NCBI GenBank assembly: GCA_965248195.1
Contig: CBDFIQ010000001.1
Coordinates: forward strand, 96,001 to 160,000
Reading direction: 5' to 3'
Length of the DNA stretch: 64,000 nucleotides
Origin: Longimicrobiales bacterium
GTDB lineage: Bacteria; Gemmatimonadota; Gemmatimonadetes; Longimicrobiales; Gaopeijiaceae
Shown here piece by piece: positions 87 to 15,372 of the stretch (position 1 is its first letter; the number at the start of each line of letters is the position of its first letter). The notes beneath the pieces are model-generated. The model had not been told where the DNA came from and ran no database searches. It worked only from the letters and a program-made list of their open reading frames with translations. Both the position numbers and the translations under genes were made by a program.

Positions 87-105
87 ATGGGGGATGCTAC
101 GTGTC

Positions 106-198
106 ACTTAACGTTCAGAGGTTGCCGGCGCGGCGCCTCCGGCGCCGTGCTCTCCGGAGCGAACATAGTGAGCGTAGGCGGCAACCTACTTGTTATGA
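106..198 (-). repeat. attC-like cassette recombination site
   Basis: Minus strand: TCATAAC-AAGTA-GGTTGCCG...CGGCAACC-TCTGAAC-GTTAAGT, just downstream of the higA stop. Near-identical to the site at 1023-1115. Confidence 0.85.
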
Positions 199-220
199 GT
201 CGTGCGACCGATTGCACAAC

Positions 221-607
221 TCAATCGTCGATGCCAAGCAAGATATCGGCGGGGATCCCAAGGAGGCGCCTCAGTCCCTCAACCTGAGCCTTGGAAAGTT
301 CTCGTTTGCCATTCAGGAAGTCCGATACGCGGCTCTTTCCACCCATCACCTGATCGAGATCCGAGCGGTCCAGTTCCTTCTGCTCCAGCATGAACGTCAC
401 GGCCTGCTGGGGCGTCACCGAACCCATGGGGTAACGCTCGTCCTCGTAGTGCTCCACCAATACCGAGAGGAATTCCAGCCGGTCGTAGCCCTCACTCCCA
501 GGCTCGACGTCCTCGTCTACCAGTTGTTCGACCTCCGCAATCGCGGCCTCATACTCCGCGTCGCTCCTCAAGACATGTGGCTTCGAGAAGTCCAGTACCG
601 TTGTCAT
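221..607 (-). CDS. higA: HigA-type antitoxin (HTH)
   Basis: EYEAAIAEVEQL...RLEFLSVLVEHYE and C-terminal HTH GGKSRVSDFLNGKRELS. GGAGGAG RBS upstream of ATG 607; follows a HigB-like toxin. Confidence 0.85.
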   Translation of the reverse strand: MTTVLDFSKPHVLRSDAEYEAAIAEVEQLVDEDVEPGSEGYDRLEFLSVLVEHYEDERYPMGSVTPQQAVTFMLEQKELDRSDLDQVMGGKSRVSDFLNGKRELSKAQVEGLRRLLGIPADILLGIDD

Positions 608-626
608 AATGCGTCTCCTCCCGCGC

Positions 627-923
627 TCACAGCGCTCCTTCAATCGACTTCCGGTCGTACTCCTCATGCGTCAGCACGTGACGGACGTACACTCGTCTGA
701 GATCGTATCGCATATCGACGACCAATCGATACTTGTTCCCACCAATGTTGAAGATCGTCCGACGCGCACCTAGAAAGCTCGCCGTCGGAAAGTCCGCCCG
801 TAGCTCGTGGGGCGATCGATAGTCTTGCGACTTGATGATCCGGTACCACGCATCCAGTGGAGCCTCAGCGTCAGCGTGTTTCTCGGCGAACTGGCGTAAA
901 GGCCTCCGCGAGATGATCCGCAC
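627..923 (-). CDS. higB: HigB-type mRNA interferase toxin
   Basis: RIISRRPLRQF...FNIGGNKYRLVV...VLTHEEYD motifs; toxin-first operon with higA. Confidence 0.88.
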   Translation of the reverse strand: MRIISRRPLRQFAEKHADAEAPLDAWYRIIKSQDYRSPHELRADFPTASFLGARRTIFNIGGNKYRLVVDMRYDLRRVYVRHVLTHEEYDRKSIEGAL

Positions 924-1022
924 CGCCACTCCCCACCAAACAAGTTCCTGGATCGGAAATATACATTACCAACATGGGAACATCGTCACCTGAGGTCAAC
1001 TCCAGTCCGTAGGGAGCATGAC

Positions 1023-1115
1023 GCATAACGTTCAGAGGTTGCCGGCGCGGCGCCTCTGGCGCCGTGTCCTCCGGAGCGAACGTAGTGAGCGCAGGCGGCA
1101 ACCGCACTGTTATCG
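1023..1115 (-). repeat. attC-like site
   Basis: Minus strand: CGATAAC-AGTGC-GGTTGCCG...CGGCAACC-TCTGAAC-GTTATGC. Confidence 0.85.
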
Positions 1116-1148
1116 GACGGCGCTACCTTATCGCCAATCGCACCGGTC

Positions 1149-1229
1149 TTTAAACGAACTCGGCTGCTCTCCGCGGGCGCAGCACGCGACCCTCACGTTA
1201 TACGCGACAGTAGCAATCGCTTGTTATGC
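1149..1229 (-). repeat. Degenerate attC-like site of a more canonical type
   Basis: Minus strand GCATAAC-AAGCG-ATTGCTACTGTCGCG pairs imperfectly with CGCGGAGAGCAG. The distal core (GTTTAAA) is non-consensus. Confidence 0.45.
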
Positions 1230-1314
1230 GGCGATCCACCTGGATTAGCTCTTCGTGACGGGCGCGAGGCCGTGGAGCCCGCTTCCACGAGAGCTAGTCA
1301 TTATCCGACCACGG

Positions 1315-2028
1315 TCACGTGCAGGCACCGGACCTGAGAAGGAGCAAATGCTCGCGTCCGGGGACATCGATAAGGTGCTCTGAATTACTGAGACTGAAAC
1401 CCGGTACAGGAGTTAGCAGGCGATTACCGGGCTCGCAGTTCGTAAGGTTGGTCGTTCGGACTTGGCCAACGATCGGGATCTCCAGACACCGCCCGTTCTG
1501 ACTAACCAGGAGAGTACCGGCATCATCGTAAGCTAGACTTAGGAACTTGACGCCAACCAGAGTGAAATCAAAAGCGGGAGTGACCCCGGCGGGCATACGA
1601 ACGGAGCCGTCTCGCCTCGCGAGCTCCGCACAACTCGGACACCCCACCACCAAGGCGTCCCCTTCTAGAACCAACGTGCCCGTTGATGTCAACACGATCG
1701 GTTCGCGCTCGTTCGAGAAGCCTGCCACGGCGACAGAAGCCTGACCAAGGGATGTGCAATACATGCCGCCGGTGTAGCCCGACACAACTACCTCCAACGA
1801 GTCTGGTGAAGACCCGTCAGGCACGCGCACGCGAAATTCCGAGTAACCCCTTGCGTCCTCAGGCCCACGGCTGATGAGAATCGAGGCGAGATCTCGCACG
1901 CTAATCTCCATCTCCACGCAGCCCAGTTCATCACCAGGGCACTCTGAAAGCAGGCTGACTTCTTGGGATGAGCTCGGATGTGCGACGCAAGCAAGCGTAC
2001 TGACCAGAAGTATCGAAGACGAACGCAT
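1315..2028 (-). CDS. Cassette hypothetical exported protein or lipoprotein
   Basis: ORF between att-like sites. N-terminus MRSSSILLVSTLAC is signal/lipobox-like; Cys-rich. Start uncertain. Confidence 0.55.
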   Translation of the reverse strand: MRSSSILLVSTLACVAHPSSSQEVSLLSECPGDELGCVEMEISVRDLASILISRGPEDARGYSEFRVRVPDGSSPDSLEVVVSGYTGGMYCTSLGQASVAVAGFSNEREPIVLTSTGTLVLEGDALVVGCPSCAELARRDGSVRMPAGVTPAFDFTLVGVKFLSLAYDDAGTLLVSQNGRCLEIPIVGQVRTTNLTNCEPGNRLLTPVPGFSLSNSEHLIDVPGREHLLLLRSGACT

Positions 2029-2192
2029 GCGCTTTCTCCAATCGCGGGCCCAGGGCGAGTCCATTCTTAACGGTATGGAGCCCTTCTGTGAGGAACAAGC
2101 GTGATTACCGAAGAACCAACGACAATCTGCCGAAGATGCACACCTGCCGACCGCCGCATAACTACTGATTCTACCACACCCCACTCGTTCTC

Positions 2193-3568
2193 GGTCAAGT
2201 CCCGATTTGTGTGTAAAAGCGGAGGAAGCTCCTCGCCTTCGGCTAGGCTGCTTGGGCGACCTCCTGTTTCTGGAGGAGTGAGAGGTCGAGGTAACGCCGG
2301 TCGCCCCAGACGTGTGTGGTCCTGAGTGCGACGGCCGTGATGAGCCTGAGGGCGCTGGCCCGGTCCGGGAAGGCGCCGGCGGCCTTGATCCTGCGTTTGA
2401 TCTCGCCGTGCAGCCGCTCGAGGCTGTTGGTGGTACGCAGCCGGGGCCAGTGCGCCTCGGGGAACGCGTAGAACTGCGTCGCTGCCCCGAAGCCCCGCTC
2501 CAGGACCTCCACGGCCTCGGGCAGCTCCTTCTTCCAGCGTGCGCCGAACTCGCCCAGGAGCTTCTTCGCCTCGGCGAGTCCGGATGTCTGGAAGATCACC
2601 GAGACCTCACGCGCCACGCGCTTGCGTAGGCGGTGGGGGACCCTCGCCCCCACATTACGCTGCAGATGGACCGTACACCTCTGACGGCGTGCCTCGGGCA
2701 GGAAGCGGCGGACCGCAGCTGCCAGGCCTGCGTGCTCATCGGCGATCACGAGCTCGACACCGCCGAGGCCGCGGTCCTGGAGTTGCTCGAGGAGCTCCGA
2801 CCAGCTCTGCTGCGACTCCTCAGCGCCCAGCGTGACGGCCAGGAGCCGTCGGTGACCCTCAGGGCCCACTGCATACGCCACGAGCGCACTCACGTTCTCG
2901 ACTTTGCGGGCCCAGCGGGCGTCCAAGAACGTGGCGTCCAGGTACAGATAGGGGTGAGGCCCCTCGATCGGCGCACGGCGCAGCCCTTCCACGGCCTCGT
3001 CGAGCCGTTTTGCCACACGACTCACCGTCGAGCGCCCAACACGCTCGCCCATCAGCGCCTCGGTGACGTCGCCCATCTTGCGCTGTGACACGCCGCTCAC
3101 ATACGCCTCGACCATCATCTCGTCGAGCTCGGGGCTCCTGCGCTGGTAGCGGCCGATCACGTCGGCCGGCGAACCGTTGTCCCGGCTCCGGGGCATGGCG
3201 ACCTCGATCTGCCCCAGGCTCGTCAGCAGCCGCCTCAGGTATGTGCCGTTCCTATGGTCCTTCCGGCTTCCCACCCGCTCGAAGCGGCGTGCACCTACCA
3301 TGGCCTTCAGCTCCTCTTCCAGCACCATCTCGAGCGTCAGCCGGATCGCGCCTTGAAACAGCTCGCGCAAATCATCGCGTAGCTCGTCTTGCGTGGCCCG
3401 ACCGATCTCCACAATCTCTTGCATCGGAAGCTCCTCTCCGGTTCCGAGCCTGCTCTGCAGACCCGGACTCCCGGGTTCATGTGACAGTGAACAACAACAG
3501 AGGAGCTTCCGTTTTTCTTTCCCTCCTGTCCAGCTTATCCGCTTTTACACAAATCTAGGGACACTACC
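2193..3568 (-). mobile_element. IS256-family insertion sequence, copy 1 (1376 bp)
   Basis: Imperfect terminal IRs GGTCAAGTCCCGATTTGTGTGTAAAAGCGGA / GGTAGTGTCCCTAGATTTGTGTAAAAGCGGA. 9-bp target duplication CTCGTTCTC at 2184-2192 and 3569-3577. Confidence 0.93.
2243..3424 (-). CDS. IS256-family (mutator-type DDE) transposase
   Basis: RNG..R, YLDAT, IADEHAGL, QRCTVH and TTNSLERLHGEIKRR motifs; 393 aa. Confidence 0.93.
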   Translation of the reverse strand: MQEIVEIGRATQDELRDDLRELFQGAIRLTLEMVLEEELKAMVGARRFERVGSRKDHRNGTYLRRLLTSLGQIEVAMPRSRDNGSPADVIGRYQRRSPELDEMMVEAYVSGVSQRKMGDVTEALMGERVGRSTVSRVAKRLDEAVEGLRRAPIEGPHPYLYLDATFLDARWARKVENVSALVAYAVGPEGHRRLLAVTLGAEESQQSWSELLEQLQDRGLGGVELVIADEHAGLAAAVRRFLPEARRQRCTVHLQRNVGARVPHRLRKRVAREVSVIFQTSGLAEAKKLLGEFGARWKKELPEAVEVLERGFGAATQFYAFPEAHWPRLRTTNSLERLHGEIKRRIKAAGAFPDRASALRLITAVALRTTHVWGDRRYLDLSLLQKQEVAQAA

Positions 3569-3585
3569 CTCGTTCTCGCGCTGTC

Positions 3586-3739
3586 GTCTAACGTTCTAGA
3601 GTTCCGAACCGGCGCGTCCGCATGCGCACCGGTTCAGCTCTCTTCACTGACTTCCTGCACTGCTTCCTGGCTCACCACCGTTCGCGCCGGTTTCTCCGGA
3701 GCGGCCACAGGCCGCGTAGGCGGAACTCGTTTGTTAGGC
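3586..3739 (-). repeat. attC-like site (long form)
   Basis: Minus strand: GCCTAAC-AAAC-GAGTTCCG...CGGAACTC-TAGAAC-GTTAGAC. Confidence 0.85.
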
Positions 3740-3773
3740 GCTGCGCGCTCCAGGTCACCAGACCAAGCCTCAT

Positions 3774-4265
3774 TCACGACCCTTTTGGATCAAGGACCCG
3801 ATAGGGCACCCCAATCCACGCGCCGGTTGAATCGGTCCGGAGAAAGAACCGAACCTCGCATTCCCGCTCGAAGAGTCTGAAGAGGGGGATCCCTTCGAAT
3901 TCCCAACTGACCCTTACGACATCCGACTGCCCAGCGTCTAGCACGAAGGGCCCATAGGCCTCGGCCCCGGTCGAGAAGGTCCTCGCAGTGAAGACCTCAG
4001 TCCCCGCCGCGAGAGCGATTGAGTCAATCGCCACTGGGACGAGCGTTGGGTTTTCGAACCGGATCCGAACAGAGGCCCATTCGTTGCCGACTAGTCCACC
4101 AATTCGTCCGGTTTCCGCGACGATTAGACCAACCCTCCCAACCCATGTGGCAGAATCAGTTTGGGTCCATTCGGCTGGTGCGATGTCGATCCCTGGATCA
4201 CAGGCAAGGAGAGCGAGGATCATCCCGCTACACCCGATTCGACAGACTCGCCACCACCGCATCAT
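3774..4265 (-). CDS. Cassette hypothetical lipoprotein
   Basis: Lipobox-like ILALLAC. The cassette begins GTTAGGCGCT and ends AGCGCCTAAC (perfect complement). Confidence 0.6.
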   Translation of the reverse strand: MMRWWRVCRIGCSGMILALLACDPGIDIAPAEWTQTDSATWVGRVGLIVAETGRIGGLVGNEWASVRIRFENPTLVPVAIDSIALAAGTEVFTARTFSTGAEAYGPFVLDAGQSDVVRVSWEFEGIPLFRLFERECEVRFFLRTDSTGAWIGVPYRVLDPKGS

Positions 4266-4296
4266 CCCCTGAAATTCTCCTTAGGTATTGAGTAGC

Positions 4297-4455
4297 GCCT
4301 AACGTTTCAGGACTCCGAACTGGCCCCGTCCAAAACGATTCCAGCCTCAGCTCTCTGCGAAGCAACACCTTCGTTCCCCGACCCCATTCTGCCCATGGGC
4401 CAGTTGGGTCGAAGGCCGCCGTCAGGCGGCCGAAGCCGGAGTCCGATTGTTATAT
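4297..4455 (-). repeat. attC-like site (long form)
   Basis: Minus strand: ATATAAC-AATC-GGACTCCG...CGGAGTCC-TGAAAC-GTTAGGC. Related to 3586-3739. Confidence 0.85.
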
Positions 4456-4528
4456 GCCGTCGCTTCCAAGGGAGGTAGTCAGGCCAACCTACACGACCTT
4501 GCGAGTATGCGTCTCAGTCTTTGGGCTG

Positions 4529-5104
4529 CTACCACACCTTCCACCAAGGCCGTGACCTCCTCGGAGCAAGGTCGGCGAAGACCCTCGGGGCGGCCTTCAA
4601 GGGGCCCACTGGATCCTCGTCGTGCTTGAAGCCAGTGATCTCCTTCGCCGCGAGCAACGGCAAGTCGAACACGAAATCGACCTCGGCTCGACCTGCGTCC
4701 TCCTTCTTCTGCTCCTCGAATATGCCTTGGCGCAGTTCGTCAAAGCCCTCCGGCAGCTCCCCTCTCAGCTCGAGCTCGTACTTCCCCTTCTGGGCGTCAT
4801 GCGCCAGCCGCCAAACTTCGCTCCCGCCTTTCCAGTACGCGGCCGAGCTATACATGACGTGCTCCTCCACTGCGCAGGCGACACAGCTATACCGCTGAGA
4901 AAGGGACCTGAGGAACTCCGGGTCGACCAGACGATGGTCGCATCGCTGACCAACGAGCACGAACCATCCCCCTTCCAGGGCACAGCCTGAGATGGAGGCT
5001 TCGAAGTAGGGATCGGGCTCTGCACTCGGCTCGATACGTGCCTCTTGGAACAGCGCGGACGGATCCTCTGTCTCCACTGCAAGCCATGCGATGGCGTAGC
5101 CCAC
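4529..5104 (-). CDS. Cassette hypothetical protein
   Basis: 191-aa ORF with GGAGG RBS, ending RPWWKVW and filling the space between two att-like sites. Confidence 0.7.
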   Translation of the reverse strand: MGYAIAWLAVETEDPSALFQEARIEPSAEPDPYFEASISGCALEGGWFVLVGQRCDHRLVDPEFLRSLSQRYSCVACAVEEHVMYSSAAYWKGGSEVWRLAHDAQKGKYELELRGELPEGFDELRQGIFEEQKKEDAGRAEVDFVFDLPLLAAKEITGFKHDEDPVGPLKAAPRVFADLAPRRSRPWWKVW

Positions 5105-5175
5105 TATTCGGCCTCCCTGTTCAACTGCACGGGTCTAGTCATGGATCGCGTAGCCAAGCGCAGCCTGGCGATGGC

Positions 5176-5269
5176 GCATAACGTTCAAAGTTGCCGTCGC
5201 GGCTCGCGAACGCGAGCCGTGATCGTCGTAGTGAGCGCAGCGAACGAAGCCGGCAACTGTTTGTTAGCC
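5176..5269 (-). repeat. attC-like site
   Basis: Minus strand: GGCTAAC-AAAC-AGTTGCCG...CGGCAACT-TTGAAC-GTTATGC. Confidence 0.85.
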
Positions 5270-6563
5270 GGCGTCCGTAGCATCAAGACGACTCAGCAGT
5301 GCCACAACCTCCTCGGCAGTCGGCATCGGAGCGGATAGGACCTCGTCGATGACCACGCTTAGGTCCTGCCTGATCTCTTGCAGTAGTTCGTCGGCAAGGA
5401 GCACAGCAGTGGCTGAGAAGGACCGCCCGGCGTCCTCGAATTCGAGCCAGACGGGGTCCGTCACAAACGACCGTTGTTGAGGGATCTTGGTGAATCTGAC
5501 GTCTACGATCCAAGCACATCCGCGACGCAACGACGGGCGACACGGCTTCCCCCGCGATCCGCGTTCCGTAGGGCAGAATCCGCCGGAGCGACCCGTGCAA
5601 CGCCGTTCCCCTCGCCCGCAGTGGGTCGCCTGGAGGAGCAGGGGGCTTCGGTGGCCCATTCACGGTGGCCAGCGTGTGTACCTGCACACCAACCGGAAAG
5701 CTCACTCGAAGTGACACGTCACTAGCCGGCGCCGTCCCGTCGTTCCGCACCCTGAACCGCAGCGGTTGCAGGTGCACCGTGCTCTGGAGGTATTGATTCA
5801 GCGAATTCAGCCACGTGCCGACCGCTGCGAGATAGGTCGAGATTCTACGCTCCTCATCTCGCGCCTCCGGTGGAATGAGCGCAGGATCGAAGTTTTTGAA
5901 GCGCTTTGAGGGGTCGGGGTACTTGGCCTCTATAGAAGTCGCCACACCACGAATCAGAGAATCAGGGAAGCGGAGCGCCTGTCGCGGCCACTCGATTTCG
6001 AGTATCGGGCCCTCACCGAAATCCACGTGCAGGTCAGGGCGACGTGCCCTCTCCTTTTCAAGTTCGGCCTTTAGGCGCCTGATCTCATGGACCTGGGGGT
6101 CCTGCGATGCCGGTAGTGAGTAGCGAGACGGCATGTCCCACGCACGGATACCGACAAGCCCTGCGGCTATCCTGGGCGTAACATCATGAGTTACCAACCC
6201 CACCGCATGAGCTGACTCCTGCAGACGCAACCCGATCGCCACGAGGCGATGATCCGGGTTGGAGCGACTCAGGTTAAGCGCCTCGAAGTCCGCCTGAGGC
6301 TGCAGCGAGCAGAATTCTAGGAGCGTCCCATCGGACAGCTTGATCGGCGACCCTGACGACTGGATCTTCTCGATCAGCCCCAGGATCCGCCGAGCCCGGT
6401 CGCGGCGTCGCGCGTTCGGGTGGGCATCCTTGAGCTCGTCCAGCTCCTCGAGGTTGACCCAGGTCATCCTCACCGCTTCCACCTGACAACCTGCGACCTC
6501 CGCCCAGTCTGCGCCCTCGAAGTCGAAGTGCAGCAGGACGTTGGTATCGACGATGATATTCAT
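5264..6563 (-). pseudogene. PIN-domain protein cassette, apparently frameshifted (~5520-5640)
   Basis: N-terminal IIVDTNVLLH, EELDELK, NPDHRLV and LVTHD PIN motifs. The plausible C-terminus is in another frame, whose TAA falls in the att core GGCTAAC. Confidence 0.65.
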
Positions 6564-6616
6564 ACCAACTCTCACTCCTCAATCACCCGTCTCCACCTCC
6601 TCACAGTGCGGATGCC

Positions 6617-6709
6617 GGCTAACGTTCCAGGGTGCCGACGCGGCTCGCAACGCGAGCCGTGTTCTCCGGAGCGAACGCAGTGAGCGCAGGCGGCACCCGT
6701 GTGTTAACT
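6617..6709 (-). repeat. attC-like site
   Basis: Minus strand: AGTTAAC-ACAC-GGGTGCCG...CGGCACCC-TGGAAC-GTTAGCC. Confidence 0.85.
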
Positions 6710-6719
6710 GACGTGCGGC

Positions 6720-7541
6720 CTATCCCCCTGCGCCTATTCTGGACACCGTGTCGGCGGAGTCCGCCATGGCTCTCAACTTGGCCGGGAAGCCAGTTCCGCA
6801 GATCTGCTCCAGAGGATAAGGGGACTCCTGGGGTTTCTGAAACAAGGAGTCCATTTCTGCCGCCTTGCGTCGGTACACGTCGGCTCGAACTCTGTATCTT
6901 CCAGGGGGTGCCACTTCACTCAAGGACTCGCCAACTACCCGGAAGTACCTGGGCCAGTACGCTTCTTCGCCACAAATCGATGGAACGGCGCCTCCGCACT
7001 CGATCAGTGGGTATGCTCCGCCCTCGAATGTCTCGATGACATACTGACCGTCCTCTCGACGTAGGTTCCCGGCAATGCATTCGTCGAACGGGATTAAGAG
7101 CAACTCGGGCCCTTCATTGGTGGAGAGCACCGCCGCGGTGGCATTGGTCTCTTCGTAGCCCAACGACCAAAAGAGGTCTGTTCGACCATCCCCATTCAGG
7201 TCGGCGAGAGCGACCTCCGGCCTCCCTCCGTAGAGGTCTCCCGACCGCCAATATTCGTCGGTTCCAATAGCCCAAAGCACTTGGTGGTCATACACACCGA
7301 TCGGATCGAGGAACACGCTGTCCACACCCGTTGCGGAAATGAGCACTCGTTCGCGGCCCTGTTGAACGGACTGGGTAACGGGCGAATCTGCAACCAGATC
7401 TGCCGATCCCGCCTCAGTGGATCTTGCGGCTGAAGAGTTCTCCCCCCTTTGCGACTCCGGTCCGCACGCAACGAAACCCAACCCCGTCGCGGCTATCAGA
7501 AATGGCGTCAGCTTCAAAGACCTAATCCTCGTCGAAAGCAT
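6720..7541 (-). CDS. Cassette hypothetical lipoprotein
   Basis: Lipobox GLGFVAC and an FG-GAP/Ca-loop-like ADLNGDGRTDL. The cassette begins GTTAACTGAC and ends GTCAGTTAAC. Confidence 0.65.
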   Translation of the reverse strand: MLSTRIRSLKLTPFLIAATGLGFVACGPESQRGENSSAARSTEAGSADLVADSPVTQSVQQGRERVLISATGVDSVFLDPIGVYDHQVLWAIGTDEYWRSGDLYGGRPEVALADLNGDGRTDLFWSLGYEETNATAAVLSTNEGPELLLIPFDECIAGNLRREDGQYVIETFEGGAYPLIECGGAVPSICGEEAYWPRYFRVVGESLSEVAPPGRYRVRADVYRRKAAEMDSLFQKPQESPYPLEQICGTGFPAKLRAMADSADTVSRIGAGG

Positions 7542-7544
7542 GTC

Positions 7545-7631
7545 AGTTAACGAATAAGGATTGTTTCCGAACTCTACGGAAGAGCGGGCAGGAAGGCGAG
7601 GTAGTGCGAGTGCGGAAAGGATCCGTTGAAC
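7545..7631 (-). repeat. att-like site at the left end of the recombinase/Y2-transposase module
   Basis: Minus strand: GTTCAAC-GGATCC-TTTCCGCACTC...GAGTTCGGAAA-CAATCCTTATTC-GTTAACT; 10/11-bp stem. Confidence 0.7.
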
Positions 7632-7648
7632 GAAGCCGCTACGTGGTG

Positions 7649-9024
7649 GGTAGTGTCCCTAGATTTGTGTAAAAGCGGATAAGCTGGACAGGAGGGAAAG
7701 AAAAACGGAAGCTCCTCTGTTGTTGTTCACTGTCACATGAACCCGGGAGTCCGGGTCTGCAGAGCAGGCTCGGAACCGGAGAGGAGCTTCCGATGCAAGA
7801 GATTGTGGAGATCGGTCGGGCCACGCAAGACGAGCTACGCGATGATTTGCGCGAGCTGTTTCAAGGCGCGATCCGGCTGACGCTCGAGATGGTGCTGGAA
7901 GAGGAGCTGAAGGCCATGGTAGGTGCACGCCGCTTCGAGCGGGTGGGAAGCCGGAAGGACCATAGGAACGGCACATACCTGAGGCGGCTGCTGACGAGCC
8001 TGGGGCAGATCGAGGTCGCCATGCCCCGGAGCCGGGACAACGGTTCGCCGGCCGACGTGATCGGCCGCTACCAGCGCAGGAGCCCCGAGCTCGACGAGAT
8101 GATGGTCGAGGCGTATGTGAGCGGCGTGTCACAGCGCAAGATGGGCGACGTCACCGAGGCGCTGATGGGCGAGCGTGTTGGGCGCTCGACGGTGAGTCGT
8201 GTGGCAAAACGGCTCGACGAGGCCGTGGAAGGGCTGCGCCGTGCGCCGATCGAGGGGCCTCACCCCTATCTGTACCTGGACGCCACGTTCTTGGACGCCC
8301 GCTGGGCCCGCAAAGTCGAGAACGTGAGTGCGCTCGTGGCGTATGCAGTGGGCCCTGAGGGTCACCGACGGCTCCTGGCCGTCACGCTGGGCGCTGAGGA
8401 GTCGCAGCAGAGCTGGTCGGAGCTCCTCGAGCAACTCCAGGACCGCGGCCTCGGCGGTGTCGAGCTCGTGATCGCCGATGAGCACGCAGGCCTGGCAGCT
8501 GCGGTCCGCCGCTTCCTGCCCGAGGCACGCCGTCAGAGGTGTACGGTCCATCTGCAGCGTAATGTGGGGGCGAGGGTCCCCCACCGCCTACGCAAGCGCG
8601 TGGCGCGTGAGGTCTCGGTGATCTTCCAGACATCCGGACTCGCCGAGGCGAAGAAGCTCCTGGGCGAGTTCGGCGCACGCTGGAAGAAGGAGCTGCCCGA
8701 GGCCGTGGAGGTCCTGGAGCGGGGCTTCGGGGCAGCGACGCAGTTCTACGCGTTCCCCGAGGCGCACTGGCCCCGGCTGCGTACCACCAACAGCCTCGAG
8801 CGGCTGCACGGCGAGATCAAACGCAGGATCAAGGCCGCCGGCGCCTTCCCGGACCGGGCCAGCGCCCTCAGGCTCATCACGGCCGTCGCACTCAGGACCA
8901 CACACGTCTGGGGCGACCGGCGTTACCTCGACCTCTCACTCCTCCAGAAACAGGAGGTCGCCCAAGCAGCCTAGCCGAAGGCGAGGAGCTTCCTCCGCTT
9001 TTACACACAAATCGGGACTTGACC
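7649..9024 (+). mobile_element. IS256-family insertion sequence, copy 2 (1376 bp, inverted relative to copy 1)
   Basis: Same ends and identical transposase as copy 1. Flanks ACGTGGTG / ACGTGGGG (8-bp duplication, one mismatch). Confidence 0.93.
7793..8974 (+). CDS. IS256-family transposase
   Basis: Protein identical to that of 2243-3424. Confidence 0.93.
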   Translation: MQEIVEIGRATQDELRDDLRELFQGAIRLTLEMVLEEELKAMVGARRFERVGSRKDHRNGTYLRRLLTSLGQIEVAMPRSRDNGSPADVIGRYQRRSPELDEMMVEAYVSGVSQRKMGDVTEALMGERVGRSTVSRVAKRLDEAVEGLRRAPIEGPHPYLYLDATFLDARWARKVENVSALVAYAVGPEGHRRLLAVTLGAEESQQSWSELLEQLQDRGLGGVELVIADEHAGLAAAVRRFLPEARRQRCTVHLQRNVGARVPHRLRKRVAREVSVIFQTSGLAEAKKLLGEFGARWKKELPEAVEVLERGFGAATQFYAFPEAHWPRLRTTNSLERLHGEIKRRIKAAGAFPDRASALRLITAVALRTTHVWGDRRYLDLSLLQKQEVAQAA

Positions 9025-9214
9025 ACGTGGGGCTATGGAGATTGGAAGGCCGTCGAACTGGCTCCGGATGGCCTGAGGCACGCGAGATGGTGGACGGAGC
9101 CACCGAAGAGAGTGGGGATCGGGCTCCGACACGACCATGTGGGAAGTGATGAAGGGGCTGTGGCCGACGTAGGCACAGTCGGGTCCATCGCCGCCGTTGA
9201 GGAACAGCCACGTA

Positions 9215-10423
9215 TCAGGATGCGACACGGTGGACCCATGGGTTCGGAGGAGGAGGTCGCCCGAGGACCTGCACACACTGTAGCACGCCCTTTCTACAGC
9301 TGGGACAGACGTGCAGATCACGAGGCCGTAGATCGAGGAGGATCTCATCGCCATCGAGGGACTCTGGTTGCGGATCGAGGGAGACTGCTGGCTGCCCGAG
9401 TGCCTCGCGAGAGCATGCGAGCAGTCGAGCGCGGCTGGCGTTGGCGAAGATCCCGTAGTAGCGGATACGCACGAAGCCCTTCGGTAAGACGTGTAGCAGG
9501 AAGCGACGGGCGAACTCGTGGAGGGGAAGCATGAGAGTCCGGGCCCTGCGACCTCGGTAGTCCTTGTAGCGGAAGCACACAGACTGGTCGTCTACGTGGA
9601 GCAGACGATGGTTCGAGATCGCGACTCGGTGGGTATAGCGAGCCAGGTACTCGAGAACGGGCTTCGGACCGTCGAAGGGGGGTTTGGCATAGACGACCCA
9701 CTCAGTCTGGCGAGCCGCGTTGAGGTGGCGCGCGAACGCCGCGCGTGAGCGGTAGCGGGCGAGGGCACCGTGCAACTCGAGGCTCCCGTCCCGAAACGCA
9801 TCCCAGAGTCCTGCGGTGAACTTTCCCCGGAACAAACGACTGAGCACGCGCACCGGCAGGAAGAAGCCCGGCCGACAAGGACGCCATGTACGGTCACCTT
9901 CCGCCAGGCCGCCCGCTGGGACAACGCAGTGTACGTGCGGATGATGGACCAGCGTCTGGCCCCAAGTATGCAGGACGGCGAAGAACCCGATCCGTGCGCC
10001 GAGATGCTTCGGGTTCAGGGCGACATCCTGCAGCGTCCGCCCCACGGTACGAAGCAGGAGACCGTAGAAAACGCGTGGGTTCTGCAGCGCCAACGGTGCC
10101 AGGCTCTGCGGCACAGTGAAGACGACGTGCGCGTAGGGCACAGGTAACACCTCGGCCTGGCGTGCCTCGAGCCAGTCCGCTTGGGCACTACCCTGGCACT
10201 TTGGACAGTGACGGTTGCGGCACGAGTTGTACGAGATCCTCCGGTGACCGCAGGCGTCGCAGGCGTCGATGTGACCACCCAGCCGTGCGGTTCGGCAGGC
10301 GGTGATCGCCTCGACGACCGCACGTTGCTCCCAACTCCATCTCGCCCCGGATCCCAGCGAGCGCGGCGCTTCGCGGTACTCTTGGAAGACCTCGGCAAGC
10401 TCGTGCCGGGGTCGCTTGGTCAC
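9215..10423 (-). CDS. IS91-family Y2/HUH rolling-circle transposase with Zn-binding N-domain
   Basis: CDACG...SCRNRHCPKC zinc domain, LHTWGQ, HPHVH (HUH), YLARY (Y-x3-Y) and HVLPKGFVRIRYYG. Confidence 0.92.
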   Translation of the reverse strand: MTKRPRHELAEVFQEYREAPRSLGSGARWSWEQRAVVEAITACRTARLGGHIDACDACGHRRISYNSCRNRHCPKCQGSAQADWLEARQAEVLPVPYAHVVFTVPQSLAPLALQNPRVFYGLLLRTVGRTLQDVALNPKHLGARIGFFAVLHTWGQTLVHHPHVHCVVPAGGLAEGDRTWRPCRPGFFLPVRVLSRLFRGKFTAGLWDAFRDGSLELHGALARYRSRAAFARHLNAARQTEWVVYAKPPFDGPKPVLEYLARYTHRVAISNHRLLHVDDQSVCFRYKDYRGRRARTLMLPLHEFARRFLLHVLPKGFVRIRYYGIFANASRARLLACSREALGQPAVSLDPQPESLDGDEILLDLRPRDLHVCPSCRKGVLQCVQVLGRPPPPNPWVHRVAS

Positions 10424-11278
10424 CTACTCCGTTGGCTCGAACTCCGAGCTCAAGGCATCCAGAGGACTCTTAATCGAACGGAGCCGTGCCGTGGCCACGT
10501 GCGTGTAGATCGCCGTGGTCTGGAGCGCCCGGTGACCGAGCAGCGTTTGGATCATCCGCAGATCCGTGCCCGACTCCAGCAGGTGCGTCGCGTAGCTGTG
10601 ACGGAGCGTACGGGGTGTCACCCGCTTCGTGATCCCCGCTCGCGCACCGGCCGCCCCGATCACTCGTTGTACCGTCCGGCTCGTGAGCGGCTGGTCCGGA
10701 GCGCGTCCGTAGAACAGCAAGCTCCTTGGCCTGTACATACGCCAATATGCCCGCAGCGTCGCCAGCAACACGCCCGACAGGACCACCTGCCGGTCCTTGT
10801 CCCCCTTGCCGTGGCGCACGGTGATCACCATCCGGTCACTATCGATGTCGCGCACTTGCAGCCCCAGCACCTCGCTGGTCCTCAGCCCGCCACCGTACAG
10901 CGTCATTGCCATCGCCCGGTGCTTCAGGTTCCCTACCCCCTTGAGCAGACGTCCGACCTCCTCCGGGCTTAGCACCACCGGGTTGCGTCTCTTCTGTCGC
11001 GGGTAGGGGAGGTGGGGCAACAGCTCCGGCCGGTCCAGCGTCACACGGTACAGGAACCGCATTGCCCCCACCGCCTGCTTGAACGCCGAACGCGATACGT
11101 CCCGCTCCTCCTTCAGGTACCGCAGGTATCCGCGTATCTCTTCGCGGCCCAGCGTGTCCGGAGATCGCCCGAAGTGCTGCGCCATCTCGGCGACACGTCT
11201 GATGTAGATCGCCTGCGTGCGCTCTGCGTAGTTCCGGACCCTCAGATCCGTCAGCATCTTCTGCCGTAGCTCGCTCAT
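10424..11278 (-). CDS. Tyrosine recombinase (IntI/XerD-related, lacking the IntI-specific insertion)
   Basis: RNYAERT N-domain, YGGGLRTSE, HGKGDKDR, RTLRHSYATHLLE and LLGH...TTAIY; GAGGAGG RBS; 284 aa. The stop abuts the transposase start. Confidence 0.92.
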   Translation of the reverse strand: MSELRQKMLTDLRVRNYAERTQAIYIRRVAEMAQHFGRSPDTLGREEIRGYLRYLKEERDVSRSAFKQAVGAMRFLYRVTLDRPELLPHLPYPRQKRRNPVVLSPEEVGRLLKGVGNLKHRAMAMTLYGGGLRTSEVLGLQVRDIDSDRMVITVRHGKGDKDRQVVLSGVLLATLRAYWRMYRPRSLLFYGRAPDQPLTSRTVQRVIGAAGARAGITKRVTPRTLRHSYATHLLESGTDLRMIQTLLGHRALQTTAIYTHVATARLRSIKSPLDALSSEFEPTE

Positions 11279-11407
11279 CGGTCCCTCCTCGACTGGGTTG
11301 CGTTGGGGCACGCAACCTACTCGCCCAGTCCTCGGAACCTCGGCCCTACTCAGACACCGGAATCACCACCCACCGCGAGCCCTCACCACCCACCGCGTAG
11401 CGGTTTA

Positions 11408-11527
11408 GTTCAACGATTTCTTCCCGAACCATATCAGATTACCCGCCGACTCGCGATGCCATCACGACGGATGTCGCCTATGCTCGGCCAAGCCGGAACG
11501 TGTCGCCCTCCGGCCCAAACGTTATGG
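11408..11527 (-). repeat. Hybrid att-like site at the right end of the module
   Basis: Cores CCATAAC...GTTGAAC are present on the minus strand, but the two arms do not pair well. Confidence 0.5.
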
Positions 11528-11543
11528 GCCATCACGCCTCAAA

Positions 11544-11870
11544 CTAGGCCGGGGACTTCGCACCGCGTCCGCCAGGGTACCGTGGGATCTTCTTGAGGAC
11601 CTCGGCTTCTGACTTCCGCGCGTGGTAGAGGTCCCAAGCGAGTTGGAGATTGAGCCAGAAATCAGAGGAAGTTCCGAAATACTGAGATAGGCGAAGCGCA
11701 GTACTTGGGGTAACTCCGCGACGTCCATTAACGATCTCGTTCACACGCTGGTAGGGAACGGCGATCGCATCTGCCAGCTGCCTCTGGGTGATCCCCATCG
11801 GTGCTAGGAACTCCTCCAGGAGCATCACTCCGGGATGCGTCGGGAGGCGATGAGTGGGCACACGAACCAT
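11544..11870 (-). CDS. higA: HigA antitoxin (VapI/addiction antidote type)
   Basis: PTHPGVMLLEEFL...RVNEIVNGRRGVTPSTALRL...FWLNLQ. Confidence 0.92.
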   Translation of the reverse strand: MVRVPTHRLPTHPGVMLLEEFLAPMGITQRQLADAIAVPYQRVNEIVNGRRGVTPSTALRLSQYFGTSSDFWLNLQLAWDLYHARKSEAEVLKKIPRYPGGRGAKSPA

Positions 11871-11878
11871 AAGAAGCC

Positions 11879-12172
11879 TCAGTGGTAATCGACGACCTGT
11901 ACGTCCTCTGGGCCGTTCGGCGTCCATCGGAAACAGATCCGGTATTGATCGTTGATTCGAATGCTATGCTCCCCTTTGCGGTCACCCTTCAGGGCCTCGA
12001 GTCGGTTTCCTGGAGGGATCCGGAGATCCTCAAGAATAGCGGCGGCAGCAAGCGCATCTAGCTTTTTCCCACCCTGCCTCCAGAGGGACTGAGGAAGCGT
12101 CCTTCGGGCCAGTTTCGTGGGGCGCCCATAGAAGAGATCCTCTGTCGCTTCGTCCTTGAAGCTTCGAATCAT
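11879..12172 (-). CDS. higB: HigB/RelE-family toxin (plasmid maintenance killer type)
   Basis: MIRSFKD...DLRIPPGNRLEALKGDRKGEHSIRINDQYRICFRW...VDYH. Confidence 0.92.
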   Translation of the reverse strand: MIRSFKDEATEDLFYGRPTKLARRTLPQSLWRQGGKKLDALAAAAILEDLRIPPGNRLEALKGDRKGEHSIRINDQYRICFRWTPNGPEDVQVVDYH

Positions 12173-12173
12173 A

Positions 12174-12200
12174 TAGCATGATAGCCGGGATATCGTGCTA
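12174..12200. promoter_or_regulatory. Palindromic operator upstream of higBA
   Basis: TAGCATGATA-N7-TATCGTGCTA (9/10 inverted repeat) directly before the higB ATG. HigA autorepression is typical of the family. Confidence 0.6.
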
Positions 12201-12235
12201 ACACAAGAAGAACCAATTACCTGTTCGGTGATGTC

Positions 12236-12306
12236 CGATAACGGTCCAGGCGCTCCCGACGTGGAGCGAAGCGTAGGTCCGCGGAGCGGCCAGGCCCTCG
12301 TTGGGG
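12236..12306 (-). repeat. attC-like site (short)
   Basis: Minus strand CCCCAAC...CGCTCC...GGAGCG...GTTATCG. The cassette start GTTATCGGACATCAC matches the cassette end at 11521 (GTTATGGGCCATCAC) at 13/15. Confidence 0.7.
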
Positions 12307-12482
12307 TCAACGGCGGCGCGAAGTGAGCCGTCCTTGGCGCGGCAACCAACGACCGCGACAAAGTCACGGACCCTAAACCCATAACGGCTCCAGCCACGGC
12401 GGACCGAAGCGTTGGGACCAGTCTTCAGGTTCTCCAGCCGTTCGCACGTGATCCAAGTCGCGCACGGGTGGCGACTCTGACA

Positions 12483-13355
12483 CTAGCGGGCCGGTCGGCC
12501 CTCCGCTTCCCGGAGCATCGCTTCGAAGCTGGCCTCGACACCCGCCACGAGACTCCTCCACCCTTCCGCGTCAAAGCAGGTCACACACCTCGGGTCGACA
12601 GGAAGAGCCGGGTCCAACTCGCGGGGCGGATCCTGCGGGTGATTGTGGAGGAAGAGGTCGGGAGGTTCGAGCTCCTTCAGCCTTTGAAGCGTCCTCTCCG
12701 TGTCGGCGACAACCGTCGGGTGCCGGGGATTGTTGAAGAGCTGAGCCCCCGCGTTCGGAATTTCGCCGCCGCGGAAGGCGACGGAGTAGGTGTCCCCACC
12801 CTCCTGGACGGTTGTCATCCACATCGTTGCTCCTTGCGTGTGGCCCCCCGTCCAGAGGGCGTGCAACGTCACCCCACCCAGCGTGACCGTGTCACCGTCC
12901 TCGACCACGCGATCCACCGTGACAGGCTCCCAGTCTCGGGCCCCGATAGCCGAGTTGTCCTGGCCTGATTGGAGCGCCACGGCGTCGCCGCCGAGCGCAA
13001 CAACCTGCGCACCGGTCACTCGCTTCATAGCCGCGTGTCCCTCGACGTGGTCCCAATGCGCATGGCTCGAAATCATGATCCGGATGTCGCGGACGTTGAA
13101 CCCGAGTTTCTCGACGTTCGAGACGATGAGCGCGTGCATATCGGCGCTGCCCGTGTCGTGGAGAATGTGGCCCTCCGGCGTGGTGATGAGGTAGGAGCCA
13201 TATTGGCCGCCGACATAGTAGATATCGCCTATGACGCGGAACGGTTCTATGGCTTCGCTCGCCTCCTGAATGCGCTCCCCTCGTTCCGCTGCACCACACG
13301 CCGACATAGATACCATCGCTGCACTCAGCACCACCAAGGCATATATCAGACGCAT
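12483..13355 (-). CDS. Subclass B3-like metallo-beta-lactamase fold protein, exported
   Basis: EPFRVIGDIYYVG, SHAHWDH, GGHTQG and LHNHP motifs; signal peptide. Confidence 0.8.
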   Translation of the reverse strand: MRLIYALVVLSAAMVSMSACGAAERGERIQEASEAIEPFRVIGDIYYVGGQYGSYLITTPEGHILHDTGSADMHALIVSNVEKLGFNVRDIRIMISSHAHWDHVEGHAAMKRVTGAQVVALGGDAVALQSGQDNSAIGARDWEPVTVDRVVEDGDTVTLGGVTLHALWTGGHTQGATMWMTTVQEGGDTYSVAFRGGEIPNAGAQLFNNPRHPTVVADTERTLQRLKELEPPDLFLHNHPQDPPRELDPALPVDPRCVTCFDAEGWRSLVAGVEASFEAMLREAEGRPAR

Positions 13356-15010: not shown

Positions 15011-15099
15011 TCGTTCCTCCTTTGTGGACTGCCCCATTCGATCTAGTCGGGAGCTTGACTCCTCGCCAGTGGAGCTTCGCTATTGTCATGGCCATATGG

Positions 15100-15276
15100 T
15101 TGCACATGACCGAACTGACGCGGCCCATTCTGGTCGAGAGCTGCCGGCTACCGGGCGACTTTCACGGCGATCTAGCGGACCAGATGATCGTGGCGACGGC
15201 TCGACACCACGGGGCCGTCCTGGTCACGACGGACCGCGCGATCCGCGACTACGAGCACGTTCGCTCCGTCTGGTAA
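15100..15276 (+). pseudogene. C-terminal fragment of a VapC/PIN toxin
   Basis: LPGDFHGDLADQMIVATAR...LVTTDRAI...HVRSVW; the N-terminal DT motif is absent. Confidence 0.7.
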
Positions 15277-15372
15277 CCCGGCGCGGTGTAGACGGATCGC
15301 TGACGGGCCCGGCAAGCGCGACACGGGTAGCGCCCTCGCGCGCGTTACGCGGCCGCTCCATCTTCTCCAGTC

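Follow-up and report, generated by a model that had tools for sequence, protein, structure and literature searches.

The module analysed here is, almost certainly, a single IS91-family insertion sequence of the subgroup in which an Xer/IntI-like tyrosine recombinase gene directly precedes the gene of a Y2 HUH transposase. It lies in a window of 64,000 nucleotides from a Longimicrobiales bacterium and is a selfish mobile gene unit of the IS91 family in a gene-cassette slot, not a new type of integron. On the minus strand the element extends from 11414 to 7552 and measures about 2,479 bp (~2.48 kb) if a nested IS256 copy and the duplicated 8 bp are subtracted. Sequence comparison shows its anatomy, its two ends, how it is conserved, where it lies and that its targets are biased. 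In element order the parts are IRL, tyrosine recombinase, Y2 transposase, IRR and a 73-nt tail hairpin:

11386..11414, minus strand: IRL, the terminal inverted repeat on the recombinase side and outer element end; its tip GTTGAAC, read directly, is a GTTRRRY-type box
11364..11399, minus strand: a 14-nt subterminal repeat present twice in direct orientation, read directly, the outer copy within the IRL
10424..11311, minus strand: tyrosine recombinase gene, Xer/IntI-like type, 295 aa with the GTG start, 284 aa with the ATG at 11278
9215..10423, minus strand: IS91-family Y2 HUH transposase gene, 402 aa, adjoining the stop codon of the recombinase gene
9033..9214, minus strand: subterminal non-coding stretch from the Y2 stop to the IS256 insertion point, including a few inner IRR bases, delimited by alignment with copy 2 (the only other element copy in this genome), uninterrupted here
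7649..9024, plus strand: nested IS256-family IS, 1,376 bp with 25-bp inverted repeats, not part of the IS91-type element
7625..7648, minus strand: outer 24 bp of the IRR, the Y2-side inverted repeat, which the IS256 copy has severed from the remaining element
7552..7624, minus strand: element tail, folding as an imperfect hairpin (arms approximately 7608-7618 and 7564-7574), then 12 unpaired nt; 87% shared with copy 2

The Y2 protein matches the Pfam families Y2_Tnp (225 bits) and Zn_Tnp_IS91 (111 bits) and reaches 425.6 bits on the IS91 model NF033538, whose cut-off is 125. Both motifs that the first-pass annotation had listed for it, HPHVH and YLARY, were found again. The 284-aa recombinase reported next to it was likewise seen as an open reading frame with Phage_integrase (128 bits) and Phage_int_SAM_4 (68 bits), and thus has the same catalytic domain and SAM_4-type N-terminal domain as IntI and Xer enzymes. 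Scored on integron-integrase and generic models, it stayed under the cut-off of every curated one. Its best NCBIfam match is the integron-integrase model TIGR02249 with 215.7 bits against a cut-off of 265, split into two stretches; the XerD and XerC models gave 177 and 172 bits, with cut-offs of 330-335. In an alignment with the IntI remnant of the same genome the recombinase is 40% identical over 176 aligned positions and lacks about 41 positions of the remnant, the IntI-specific insert. IntI uses this extra domain on folded attC; its absence from the element's recombinase is an observation that runs counter to the mechanism proposed below.

The proposal of two abutting genes between two repeats stands as far as the genes and the 21/24-bp repeats are concerned, but an IS256-family IS is nested within one of the repeats, and the module end given as 11527 overshoots the real element end at 11414 by 113 nt. 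The arms 7625-7648 and 11391-11414 agree at 21/24 positions with their GTTGAAC tips pointing inward, direct reading confirmed GTTCAAC-N9-CCG outward at both ends, and the tips fit the att core consensus as claimed. The left arm ends at 24 bp because the IS256-family IS inserted in the Y2-side repeat; in copy 2, where this repeat is not interrupted, 28/31 positions match. The intruder encodes a 393-aa Mutator-type transposase (Transposase_mut, 7793-8974), is bordered inside the Y2-side repeat by a target duplication (7641-7648 and 9025-9032, 7/8 matching), and occurs in 103 full-length copies at ≥99% identity in the genome. It split the IRR after the element was in place. Copy 2 is cut by two further IS256 copies, and both element copies in this genome are probably immobile.

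At the outer end of the IRL, homology to C1:1062757-1062983 (a third fragment, in the same genome), to locus L010 and to seven copies in the sister genome G005 ends exactly; L010 is 87% identical to the element and has the same doubled 14-nt subterminal repeat. At the other end the attC-like site 7545-7631 is mostly the element's own tail, and IRR tip, tail and next GTT box together resemble attC. The tail arms of the diverged copies in G004 and G005 are altered on both sides compared to the window, with pairing retained. Comparison of same-genome copies in distant relatives revealed 77-92 nt of element beyond the IRR, folding as a hairpin. The att-like hairpin thus belongs to the element, with which it travels.

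The surroundings are made up of the following features:

98..6712, minus strand: array of six attC-type sites with cassette open reading frames on the minus strand
98-199, 1015-1116 and 3576-3745: attC-type sites a1, a2 and a3
4285-4460, 5166-5270 and 6607-6712: attC-type sites a4, a5 and a6
6720..7541, minus strand: cassette open reading frame on the Y2 side, 273 aa, signal peptide with Cys, weak FG-GAP match
7545..7551, minus strand: GTTAACT, an R'-type box belonging to the array; the next cassette open reading frame has its start codon 3 nt further on
11415..11520, minus strand: flank a8, a 106-nt target-side unit adjoining the IRL, not part of the element, its last 21 nt resembling the tail 3' arm
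11544..12397, minus strand: pair of HigB-like toxin and HTH antitoxin (Pfam HigB-like_toxin, HTH_3), the cassette on the recombinase side

Judged from the reading frames and the asymmetry of the attC spacers, the array lies on the same strand as the element. It is the genome's only cluster of at least five sites in our home-made scan, and nhmmer with an array model returned just 5 sites in the genome, none of them at the element. The slot described between a HigBA and a lipoprotein cassette was recovered, with HigB/HigA on the right (94% homologue in G007) and the signal-peptide protein with its weak FG-GAP match on the left. The element is placed directly 5' of the GTT in box 7545-7551, the exact joint being ambiguous within GTT. 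This box shares the extended R' pattern GTTA-N3-G-N-CA with a1-a6, and GTTATCG, GTTAGGC or GTTAG-R comes directly after element copies elsewhere.

Both junctions have the exact cassette geometry, G|TT on either side. Co-orientation with the cassettes and a position immediately 5' of an R'-type GTT give the element the look of a cassette: its start is (G)TTGAAC, and its end is an attC-like structure (IRR tip, tail hairpin, GTTAACT). The fallback reading of the first-pass annotation, a selfish cassette mimic, is thereby supported: cassette slot, GTTRRRY-type tip and an attC-like far end with the next GTT box are all present. We looked for an attC-type fold in a8 and found none, and a8 scores 5 on our home-made attC scale where real sites score 8-11; therefore only an R'-type box between cassettes, not a true attC, can be claimed for the element. 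A homologue of a8 (84%) in G006 is free of the element and continues with GTTAGCG.

To describe the family, 594 matched stretches were collected, 590 of which encode relatives, and 80 were kept. The recombinase is directly upstream of Y2 in 79 of the 80 loci, across phyla, and the architecture is unchanged in relatives from other phyla. Of 79 homologous loci, which come from several phyla, 41 carry the tip motif TTGAAC-NAA-NCCGC at both ends, more than expected by chance. Group II introns sit at the tips of the inverted repeats, right after GTTC, in two relatives, which is a hint from outside that the tips are att-like.

The seven G005 copies (2,494 bp, 99-100% identity) have different flanks at every site, and both ends are thus fixed. 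Element copies have no target duplication beyond the ambiguous GTT, and all seven G005 insertions are orientation-specific, 5' of GTTA or GTTAG. One of the seven lies 186 nt after an intI scoring over cut-off, the first position after it, co-oriented with a downstream open reading frame and four attC sites; the other six are scattered over the chromosome at sites failing the attC scan. G004 has one copy 234 nt after a full intI, and these two genomes are the genus members with intI over cut-off. A Mesorhizobium genome carries 4 copies (99.2-100% identity) at 4 sites and has no intI over cut-off.

Like an integron cassette, the element starts right after the G of a GTT box, ends in a bulged hairpin between RYYYAAC- and GTTRRRY-type boxes, and is co-oriented with the two cassettes between which it lies, the G005 copy being first after intI. 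In contrast to a cassette it encodes its own mobility enzymes, has an end complementarity of 28-31 bp instead of 7 and a 3' spacer of 12 nt compared to approximately 6 in the array sites, and spreads in genomes that have no integron. Known attC-targeting parasites are the IS1111-attC elements and the group IIC-attC introns, which rely on a DEDD transposase or on a ribozyme and reverse transcriptase (for these see in part the excerpted text of PMC9229058). Our element likewise lodges at integron recombination sites, but with an HUH enzyme and a tyrosine recombinase; the attC-like structure is its own, and among the sampled homologues it is not attC-restricted. Both parasite types were observed beside members of its family, the one as IS110-family ISs in the G005 array, the other as group II introns at the tips of the inverted repeats.

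A mechanistic aspect arises from the fold of the joined ends. In three lineages these fold to one long stacked hairpin (-36 to -45 kcal/mol), part of which is a given, since IRL and IRR complement each other. According to this model the ends of a circularised element would fold into an attC-like hairpin that has GTT where they meet. A circle joint was sought in the assembled contigs without a hit, and neither an excision product nor an empty site of the element was seen, which counts against the mechanism proposed below. On the target side, the IRL-side flanks of 39 loci share 5.26 of 14 positions with the tail arm, compared to 3.46 for random places, with p<0.05 at 10 of the 39. Hairpins are not enriched in these flanks (duplex energy -9.1 vs -11.3 in controls), and local folds are no stronger than in controls (-2.35 vs -3.11 and -4.22 vs -5.19); this, too, counts against the mechanism.

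We tentatively propose that the Y2 enzyme nicks the DNA beside the tail hairpin and, by rolling-circle replication, produces a single-stranded copy of the element. In the resulting circle the IRL would pair with the IRR and this stem would stack on the tail hairpin, giving an attC look-alike, one long bulged hairpin in which GTT marks the joint. The element's own recombinase could then exchange a strand between the folded site and a target GTT box preceded by A-rich sequence resembling the tail 3' arm, much as IntI does with cassettes. The R' boxes of attC fit such a target, and cassette arrays would therefore be one favoured landing place among others. Circle formation, the enzyme for each step and the use of single strands are what we infer, and taken as a whole the mechanism has, in our estimation, somewhat less than an even chance of being correct.

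Possible, although rather unlikely, is a plain IS91-style transposition in which Y2 alone nicks at the tail (ori-type) end beside GTT, transfers the strand to a target cut 5' of a comparable GTT box and terminates at the IRL. The recombinase might then be an accessory for multimer or cointegrate resolution or for regulation, with no part in insertion, and the attC likeness a by-product of an ori hairpin beside a GTT target. No recombinase is known to take part when canonical IS91 relatives move, and these too insert 5' of a GTT-type tetranucleotide, so that the junctions could be the work of Y2 alone. The element agrees with IS91, IS801 and IS1294 (rolling-circle, Y2 HUH) in transposase family, as the strong IS91 equivalog score and intact HUH and double-Tyr motifs indicate, in the lack of target duplication, in orientation-specific insertion 5' of a short GTT-type target (7/7 G005 sites), and in the target-adjoining end, which is downstream of the transposase gene and carries a hairpin. 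A target like the element's own cleavage context is expected of a single nuclease cutting both sites, and the excerpted text of PMC10288648 names "a tetranucleotide target" as the sequence 5' of which IS91 inserts and describes terminal hairpins as a general trait of Rep-type transposons.

Different from canonical IS91 are the added recombinase gene, the long inverted repeats (28-31 bp) followed by a 73-92-nt tail, and a target context of more than four bases that resembles the tail arm. The retention of the recombinase gene next to Y2 in 79/80 loci argues for a core role; HUH enzymes are not known to need inverted repeats of 28-31 bp; and the joined ends give a two-box hairpin of a type on which an IntI/Xer-group tyrosine recombinase could act. 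ISfinder holds a subgroup of IS91-family members with an upstream integrase-type orf, whose two-gene layout is the same and from which layout alone a shared subgroup is deduced. The searched literature on such elements, as far as its excerpts go, yielded one passing remark, on ISShvi3, called IS91-like in PMC9229058; tail hairpin, attC-like joined form and target bias were not found described in it.

That a host IntI recombines the attC-like site of the circular element with attI or attC, as with any cassette, the window copy being a captured cassette, we consider improbable. The G|TT geometry and the copies 186 and 234 nt after intI, where new cassettes enter, are in agreement with this view, and the copies beside intact intI in G004 and G005, which also fit insertion by host IntI, likewise run counter to our mechanism. 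As first noted, the array in the window has no intI, and a search of the whole genome found as its only IntI-like match a broken remnant approximately 1 Mb away; the gene is missing because of decay, the remnant being cut by IS256. Besides this broken intI, the six scattered G005 copies, the Mesorhizobium genome without intI, and the 12-nt tail bulge (about 6 nt in the array's 3' spacers) speak against host IntI. The same holds for the test of flanks for att-like arrays, in which, among 51 homologue loci whose flanks span 4 kb or more, the home-made attC scan gave two or more hits at one locus and no array at 50.

The main proposal of the first-pass annotation, a non-IntI integron-like platform whose recombinase captures or shuffles neighbouring cassettes via single strands made by Y2, is close to refuted and in our view very improbable: an array without nearby intI in a genome with a broken one, a best, albeit sub-cut-off, match to the integron-integrase model and tips matching the core-site consensus stand against a self-contained multi-copy IS found mostly away from arrays, an att-like hairpin unlike the array's attC family, two local copies broken by IS256, an intI absence accounted for by decay, and surroundings of the two copies in which no common cassette was found. 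Modules mostly without arrays, copies in Mesorhizobium without intI and a recombinase without the IntI insert leave it unsupported. No links were found between this recombinase and the other cassettes of the array.

Recombinase homologues, counted alone and irrespective of Y2 pairing, occur on 423 plasmid records with rhizobial genera at the top of the tally, which likewise speaks against such a platform. In the G005 array, three attC sites are occupied by IS110-family ISs.

The two genes described in the first-pass annotation, a tyrosine recombinase and an IS91-type Y2 transposase, are borne out by their open reading frames and domain matches. They abut at 10423/10424 on one strand, which matches the IS91 subgroup with a tyrosine recombinase orf.

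10424-11311, minus strand: tyrosine recombinase, 295 aa from GTG or 284 aa from ATG at 11278, with Phage_integrase and Phage_int_SAM_4 domains
9215-10423, minus strand: IS91-type Y2 transposase, 402 aa, with Y2_Tnp and Zn_Tnp_IS91 domains and HPHVH and YLARY in the translation
7649-9024: IS256-family element, 1,376 bp, within the Y2-side repeat, with a Mutator-type transposase and 25-bp inverted repeats
2193-3568: second IS256 copy in the window, with a 9-bp target duplication

The Y2 transposase matches PF04986 with 225 bits and PF14319 with 111 bits (Pfam) and reaches 425.6 bits against NF033538 (cut-off 125), and thus combines the Y2 HUH transposase with the N-terminal zinc-binding domain of the IS91 family. 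The insertions are also of the IS91 type: there is no target-site duplication, and they are oriented at a short conserved target with the end downstream of the transposase gene. Integrase-type orfs are listed for some members of the family (ISfinder). The arms at 7625-7648 and 11391-11414 agree at 21 of 24 positions and have GTTGAAC tips, and reading outward from either end gives GTTCAAC-N9-CCG; both had been noted correctly, as had the two flanking cassettes, of which one encodes HigB/HigA and the other a signal-peptide protein. A 14-nt direct repeat in two copies lies just inside the recombinase-side repeat (IRL; window 11364-11399), and the same doubling is seen in L010, a locus of a Gemmatimonadetes MAG; the repeat could be a protein-binding site.

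While genes and repeats stand as first described, the content of the span is not restricted to two genes, as the IS256 copy at 7649-9024 in the Y2-side repeat (IRR) had been overlooked. It has the Mutator-type DDE transposase (PF00872, 335 bits), terminal inverted repeats and target duplication of the IS256 family, the duplication agreeing at 7 of 8 positions (7641-7648 and 9025-9032). Because this copy interrupts the Y2-side repeat, the left arm appears to end at 24 bp; in a second copy of the element in the same genome (copy 2), where the repeat is uninterrupted, it reaches 28/31. Genome-wide we counted 103 full-length IS256 copies of at least 99% identity plus 10 partial ones, and they cut the window element, copy 2 and the genome's intI remnant. 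The halves of copy 2 now lie 840 kb apart, so the burst has apparently rearranged the chromosome. The 103 copies account for the array's missing integrase and for the inactivity of the element.

The true ends of the element were obtained by comparing copies. Copy 2 (C1:215730-219397) is cut by two IS256 copies, and its recombinase-side end is detached at C1:1062757-1062983. The homology breaks off precisely at 11414 on the recombinase side: in this detached end, in L010, whose element is 87% identical to that of the window, and in seven copies of G005, a complete genome of the same genus. On the Y2 side the homology with copy 2 (87%) continues for 87 nt past the repeat, to 7538. The seven G005 copies comprise 2,494 bp each and share 99-100% identity, while their flanks differ from site to site. 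Each starts with GTTGAACTAAACCGC and finishes with a hairpin plus ...CAATCCTTAATC-GTTAG; GTTAG follows in all seven, with no duplication beyond GTT. The bases after the element are GTTAACT for the window copy and GTTATCG for copy 2. A copy in G004, another member of the genus, is 74-77% identical and has the same tail with both arms altered and the pairing kept at 11 bp, where the window's tail has one mismatch. From these comparisons with copy 2, G005 and G004 it follows that the attC-like site at 7545-7631 consists of the IRR tip, the element's own 73-nt tail and the next GTT box. As this site travels with the element, we rejected it as an ordinary attC of the array. The element thus extends from 11414 to 7552, approximately 2,479 bp without its IS256 passenger.

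Next to the detached end of copy 2, a 195-aa C-terminal fragment of another recombinase of the element's type (L003 1162-1749; G000:C1:1061974-1062561) ends 195 nt ahead of the IRL. It was considered as intI and rejected, the IntI insert being absent; copy 2 may have landed within an older relative.

Among curated models, the integron integrase fits the window's recombinase best: the match reaches 215.7 bits, below the cut-off of 265, and is split into two pieces that leave out model positions 178-236. The scores for XerA, XerD and XerC come close to this one and are all under their cut-offs, so the comparison of IntI with generic models that had been advised earlier places the protein below every threshold. 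It shares 40% identity with the genome's IntI remnant; the alignment has 41 gap positions, every one of them on the recombinase's side, so the IntI-specific region is missing from this protein. An IntI with the additional domain above the curated cut-off, as an integron platform would require, was not found. The reported absence of intI holds for the window, and the whole genome (estimated completeness 91.8%) has no match above the cut-off. The best genomic match is a broken 186-aa C-terminal piece (C1:1112708-1113266) whose N-terminal part is missing and whose end is cut by an IS256 copy. Given this truncated remnant and the lack of any match above the cut-off, the sequence indicates that the array is integrase-less through decay and not by design.

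The array itself comprises six attC-type sites between 98 and 6712, each with R''/R' boxes and paired arms, and is a CALIN in the sense of at least two attC in a row with no nearby intI. By our home-made scan it is the sole cluster of at least five sites in the genome. Its cassette ORFs lie on the minus strand and begin 3-10 nt past each R' box; read in this orientation, the 5' spacer of the attC sites measures 4 nt and the 3' spacer 6 nt. Since attC sites are near-palindromes, strand calls by the scan alone are unreliable (a3 and a6 were called on both strands), and we deduce from the ORF direction and the spacer asymmetry that the top strand of the array is the minus strand, which it shares with the element. 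Among the cassette ORFs, 5283-6575 encodes 430 aa with an N-terminal PIN domain, and 12483-13355 codes for 290 aa with a signal peptide and a metallo-beta-lactamase fold (Lactamase_B, 50 bits).

The element lies exactly 5' of an R'-type GTT. Its tail is followed by GTTAACT-GAC-ATG, in agreement with the array's extended R' pattern GTTA-N3-G-N-CA, and this stretch supplies the start codon of the next ORF. As the element also starts with GTT, the joint is ambiguous over three bases; in its geometry the junction is the same as for a cassette integrated at G|TT. The element shares with gene cassettes the G|TT boundaries and the paired boxes. It differs from their definition in a 3' spacer of 12 nt, in a score of 5 on our home-made attC scale versus 8-11 for real sites, and in encoding two mobility enzymes.

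Two relatives lie next to intact integrase genes. In the G005 integron (L144, G005:C1:2203000-2219000) an element copy lies 186 nt after an intI of 278 bits, above the curated cut-off, and points the same way as the 162-aa ORF and the four canonical attC sites that follow it, which again places the element in cassette orientation and at the R' side. In G004 the copy is separated by 234 nt from a preceding full-length intI (358 bits). At six of the seven G005 sites a co-oriented ORF of at least 122 codons starts at most 110 nt past the tail, which is weak evidence in GC-rich DNA. In L144 the intI (1476-2417) is on the same strand as the cassettes, the attC sites at 5628, 7771, 8512 and 13894 show 91-100% identity, and three IS110-family copies with a 369-aa or 396-aa ORF lie beside attC sites (6149-7258, 9033-10142 and 14415-15605).

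On the IRL side the element adjoins a flank of 106 nt (a8, 11415-11520) that contains no ORF, lies between the HigBA cassette and the element and, in plus-strand reading, has AAC at each border. It was tried as the attC of the HigBA cassette and rejected: it scores 5 on the home-made scan, real sites scoring 8-11, and neither strand gave an attC fold, whether taken by itself or joined again to the R' box. The window element thus has an array-type R' box at its 3' junction and a 5' flank without an attC fold. A homologue of a8 in the sister genome G006 (L093 1496-1605; 84%) is element-free with GTTAGCG next, and is analogous to an empty site. The flank could be a relic or a cassette devoid of an ORF. 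Over its last 21 nt it is similar to the 3' arm of the tail, which explains the N9-CCG symmetry seen earlier. As a side observation, the HigBA cassette homologue in the compared genome G007 (94%; L090 2100-2200) diverges directly after the ...ATAAC box at 11521-11527 and not at the attC end, which would not be expected if the array is read on the minus strand; in the window, this box is flanked by a perfect 6-bp palindrome.

The likeness between flank and tail recurs among homologues. At 39 loci the 14-nt flank by the IRL agrees with the tail arm at 5.26 positions on average, compared to 3.46 for random places of the same loci, with p<0.05 in 10 of the 39. Mismatched pairings of flank and tail still give 4.36, so that the signal is partly a shared consensus. 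It reflects a target preference and not a part of the element, because the 99.9% identical copies L051 and L052 have different flanks. The target also differs from that of IS91 itself. Compared to controls there is no hairpin excess in the target flanks (duplex energy −9.1 versus −11.3) and no excess structure upstream of the insertions (local folds −2.35 versus −3.11 and −4.22 versus −5.19). A lax "closing hairpin" test was passed by 29 of 36 sites and by 172 of 216 controls, and as a criterion is uninformative. Two of the seven G005 insertion sites score at least 6 on the home-made attC scale. A unit of 87-96 nt, 78-85% alike, precedes four of the seven G005 copies (e.g. L124 405-500) and occurs once alone (C1:3537689-3537757); it has a small stem, GTACAGT and an A-rich end, with GTTAG after it. 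It may be the preferred landing site of the G005 lineage.

To describe the family we scanned one genome per species: 594 stretches matched, 590 of which code for proteins related to the Y2 transposase, and we retained 80 loci. In 79 of these the Y2 gene is immediately preceded, on its own strand, by a gene for a recombinase homologue, L062 being the exception. Both ends carry the tip motif TTGAAC-NAA-NCCGC in 41 of 79 loci, which belong to Acidobacteriota, Alpha- and Betaproteobacteria, Planctomycetota and further groups. In pairs of copies from the same genome the element always extends 77-92 nt beyond the Y2-side repeat, and this stretch folds into a long imperfect hairpin with a few unpaired bases after it, likewise in a four-copy Mesorhizobium lineage. 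Recombinase homologues were found on 423 plasmid records with rhizobial genera at the top of the tally, a count of recombinase matches irrespective of an adjoining Y2. Circularizing the element in silico makes IRL pair with IRR and brings this stem into a stack with the tail hairpin in three lineages, giving a single bulged hairpin of −36 to −45 kcal/mol with the joint at GTT. One must keep in mind that the pairing of the inverted repeats is given by construction, which does not apply to the stacking or to where the bulge lies.

Beside the observed anatomy, ends, conservation, cassette-like position and target bias stands a proposed mechanism. By analogy with IS91, the Y2 enzyme would copy the element out by rolling circle, the joined ends of the circle would fold, and strand exchange would take place at GTT. 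We tentatively favor that the recombinase mediates the paste-in, because it is kept in 79 of 80 loci and because long repeats and a two-box folded joint suit an enzyme of the IntI/Xer type. That the Y2 enzyme does everything alone ranks behind this and seems rather unlikely. Capture of the element as a cassette by a host IntI is improbable; it accounts for the copies adjoining intI, but scattered copies and copies in intI-free genomes, such as a Mesorhizobium genome with four copies of 99.2-100% identity and no intI match above the cut-off, do not fit. The weakest reading is that of the first-pass annotation, a non-IntI system whose recombinase shuffles cassettes: it had named homologous modules without att-like neighbors as evidence against itself, and the homologue flanks are mostly array-free, which makes it very improbable. 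Here a strict attC scan, rule-based, home-made, tuned on the window array alone and probably missing other attC types, recovered five of the six window sites at a background of 0.05-0.19 hits per 10 kb and gave 14 hits in 442 kb of flanks, with at least one hit at 10 of 51 loci and at least two at a single one. A covariance model of the array's attC was dropped, as its alignment failed to bring the arms of the two long sites, a3 and a4, into register.

Returning to paste-in by the recombinase, a wider and doubtful generalization would be that recombinase-bearing IS91 elements are self-mobilizing cassettes, with an HUH single-stranded DNA circle, an attC-type joint and IntI/Xer-like paste at GTT boxes through single-strand exchange. 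If so, they would be a free-living relative, or a model for the ancestor, of integron cassette recombination, and the long-unexplained recombinase of this subgroup would gain a function. The conserved tail hairpin, the attC-like joined ends, the landing 5' of GTT and the cassette orientation yield a concrete testable proposal for this enzyme; if true, single-strand recombination of folded sites is not unique to integrons, which bears on integron origin. The literature searched, including passages of PMC10288648, PMC5714925, PMC7923331 and PMC9229058, gives no account of the recombinase's role or of attC mimicry, with a remark on ISShvi3 in the passages of PMC9229058 as the sole exception, and nothing on tail hairpin, folded joint or target bias. 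For annotation it follows that such elements make additional attC-like sites and cassette look-alikes that can mislead integron finders.

In the contigs of four out of 23 public runs, the element is covered at 6-10-fold depth and adjoins several differing flanks. No tail-to-IRL circle joint was found in them, which in assembled contigs weighs neither for nor against circles. In run X21 a contig of depth 2 links position 525 of the G005 element (L123) to 2957, omitting 2,431 bases, and might represent a miniature derivative or an assembly artefact. Finally, group II introns, recognized by RF02001, RF01998 and RF00029 together with an RT-maturase ORF, lie directly after GTTC at the IRR tip in L010 (4724-~6700) and, on the other strand, at the IRL tip in G004 (L130 ~975-2958). 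Their placement suggests that other structure-seeking elements may read the element's ends as stem-loop targets.
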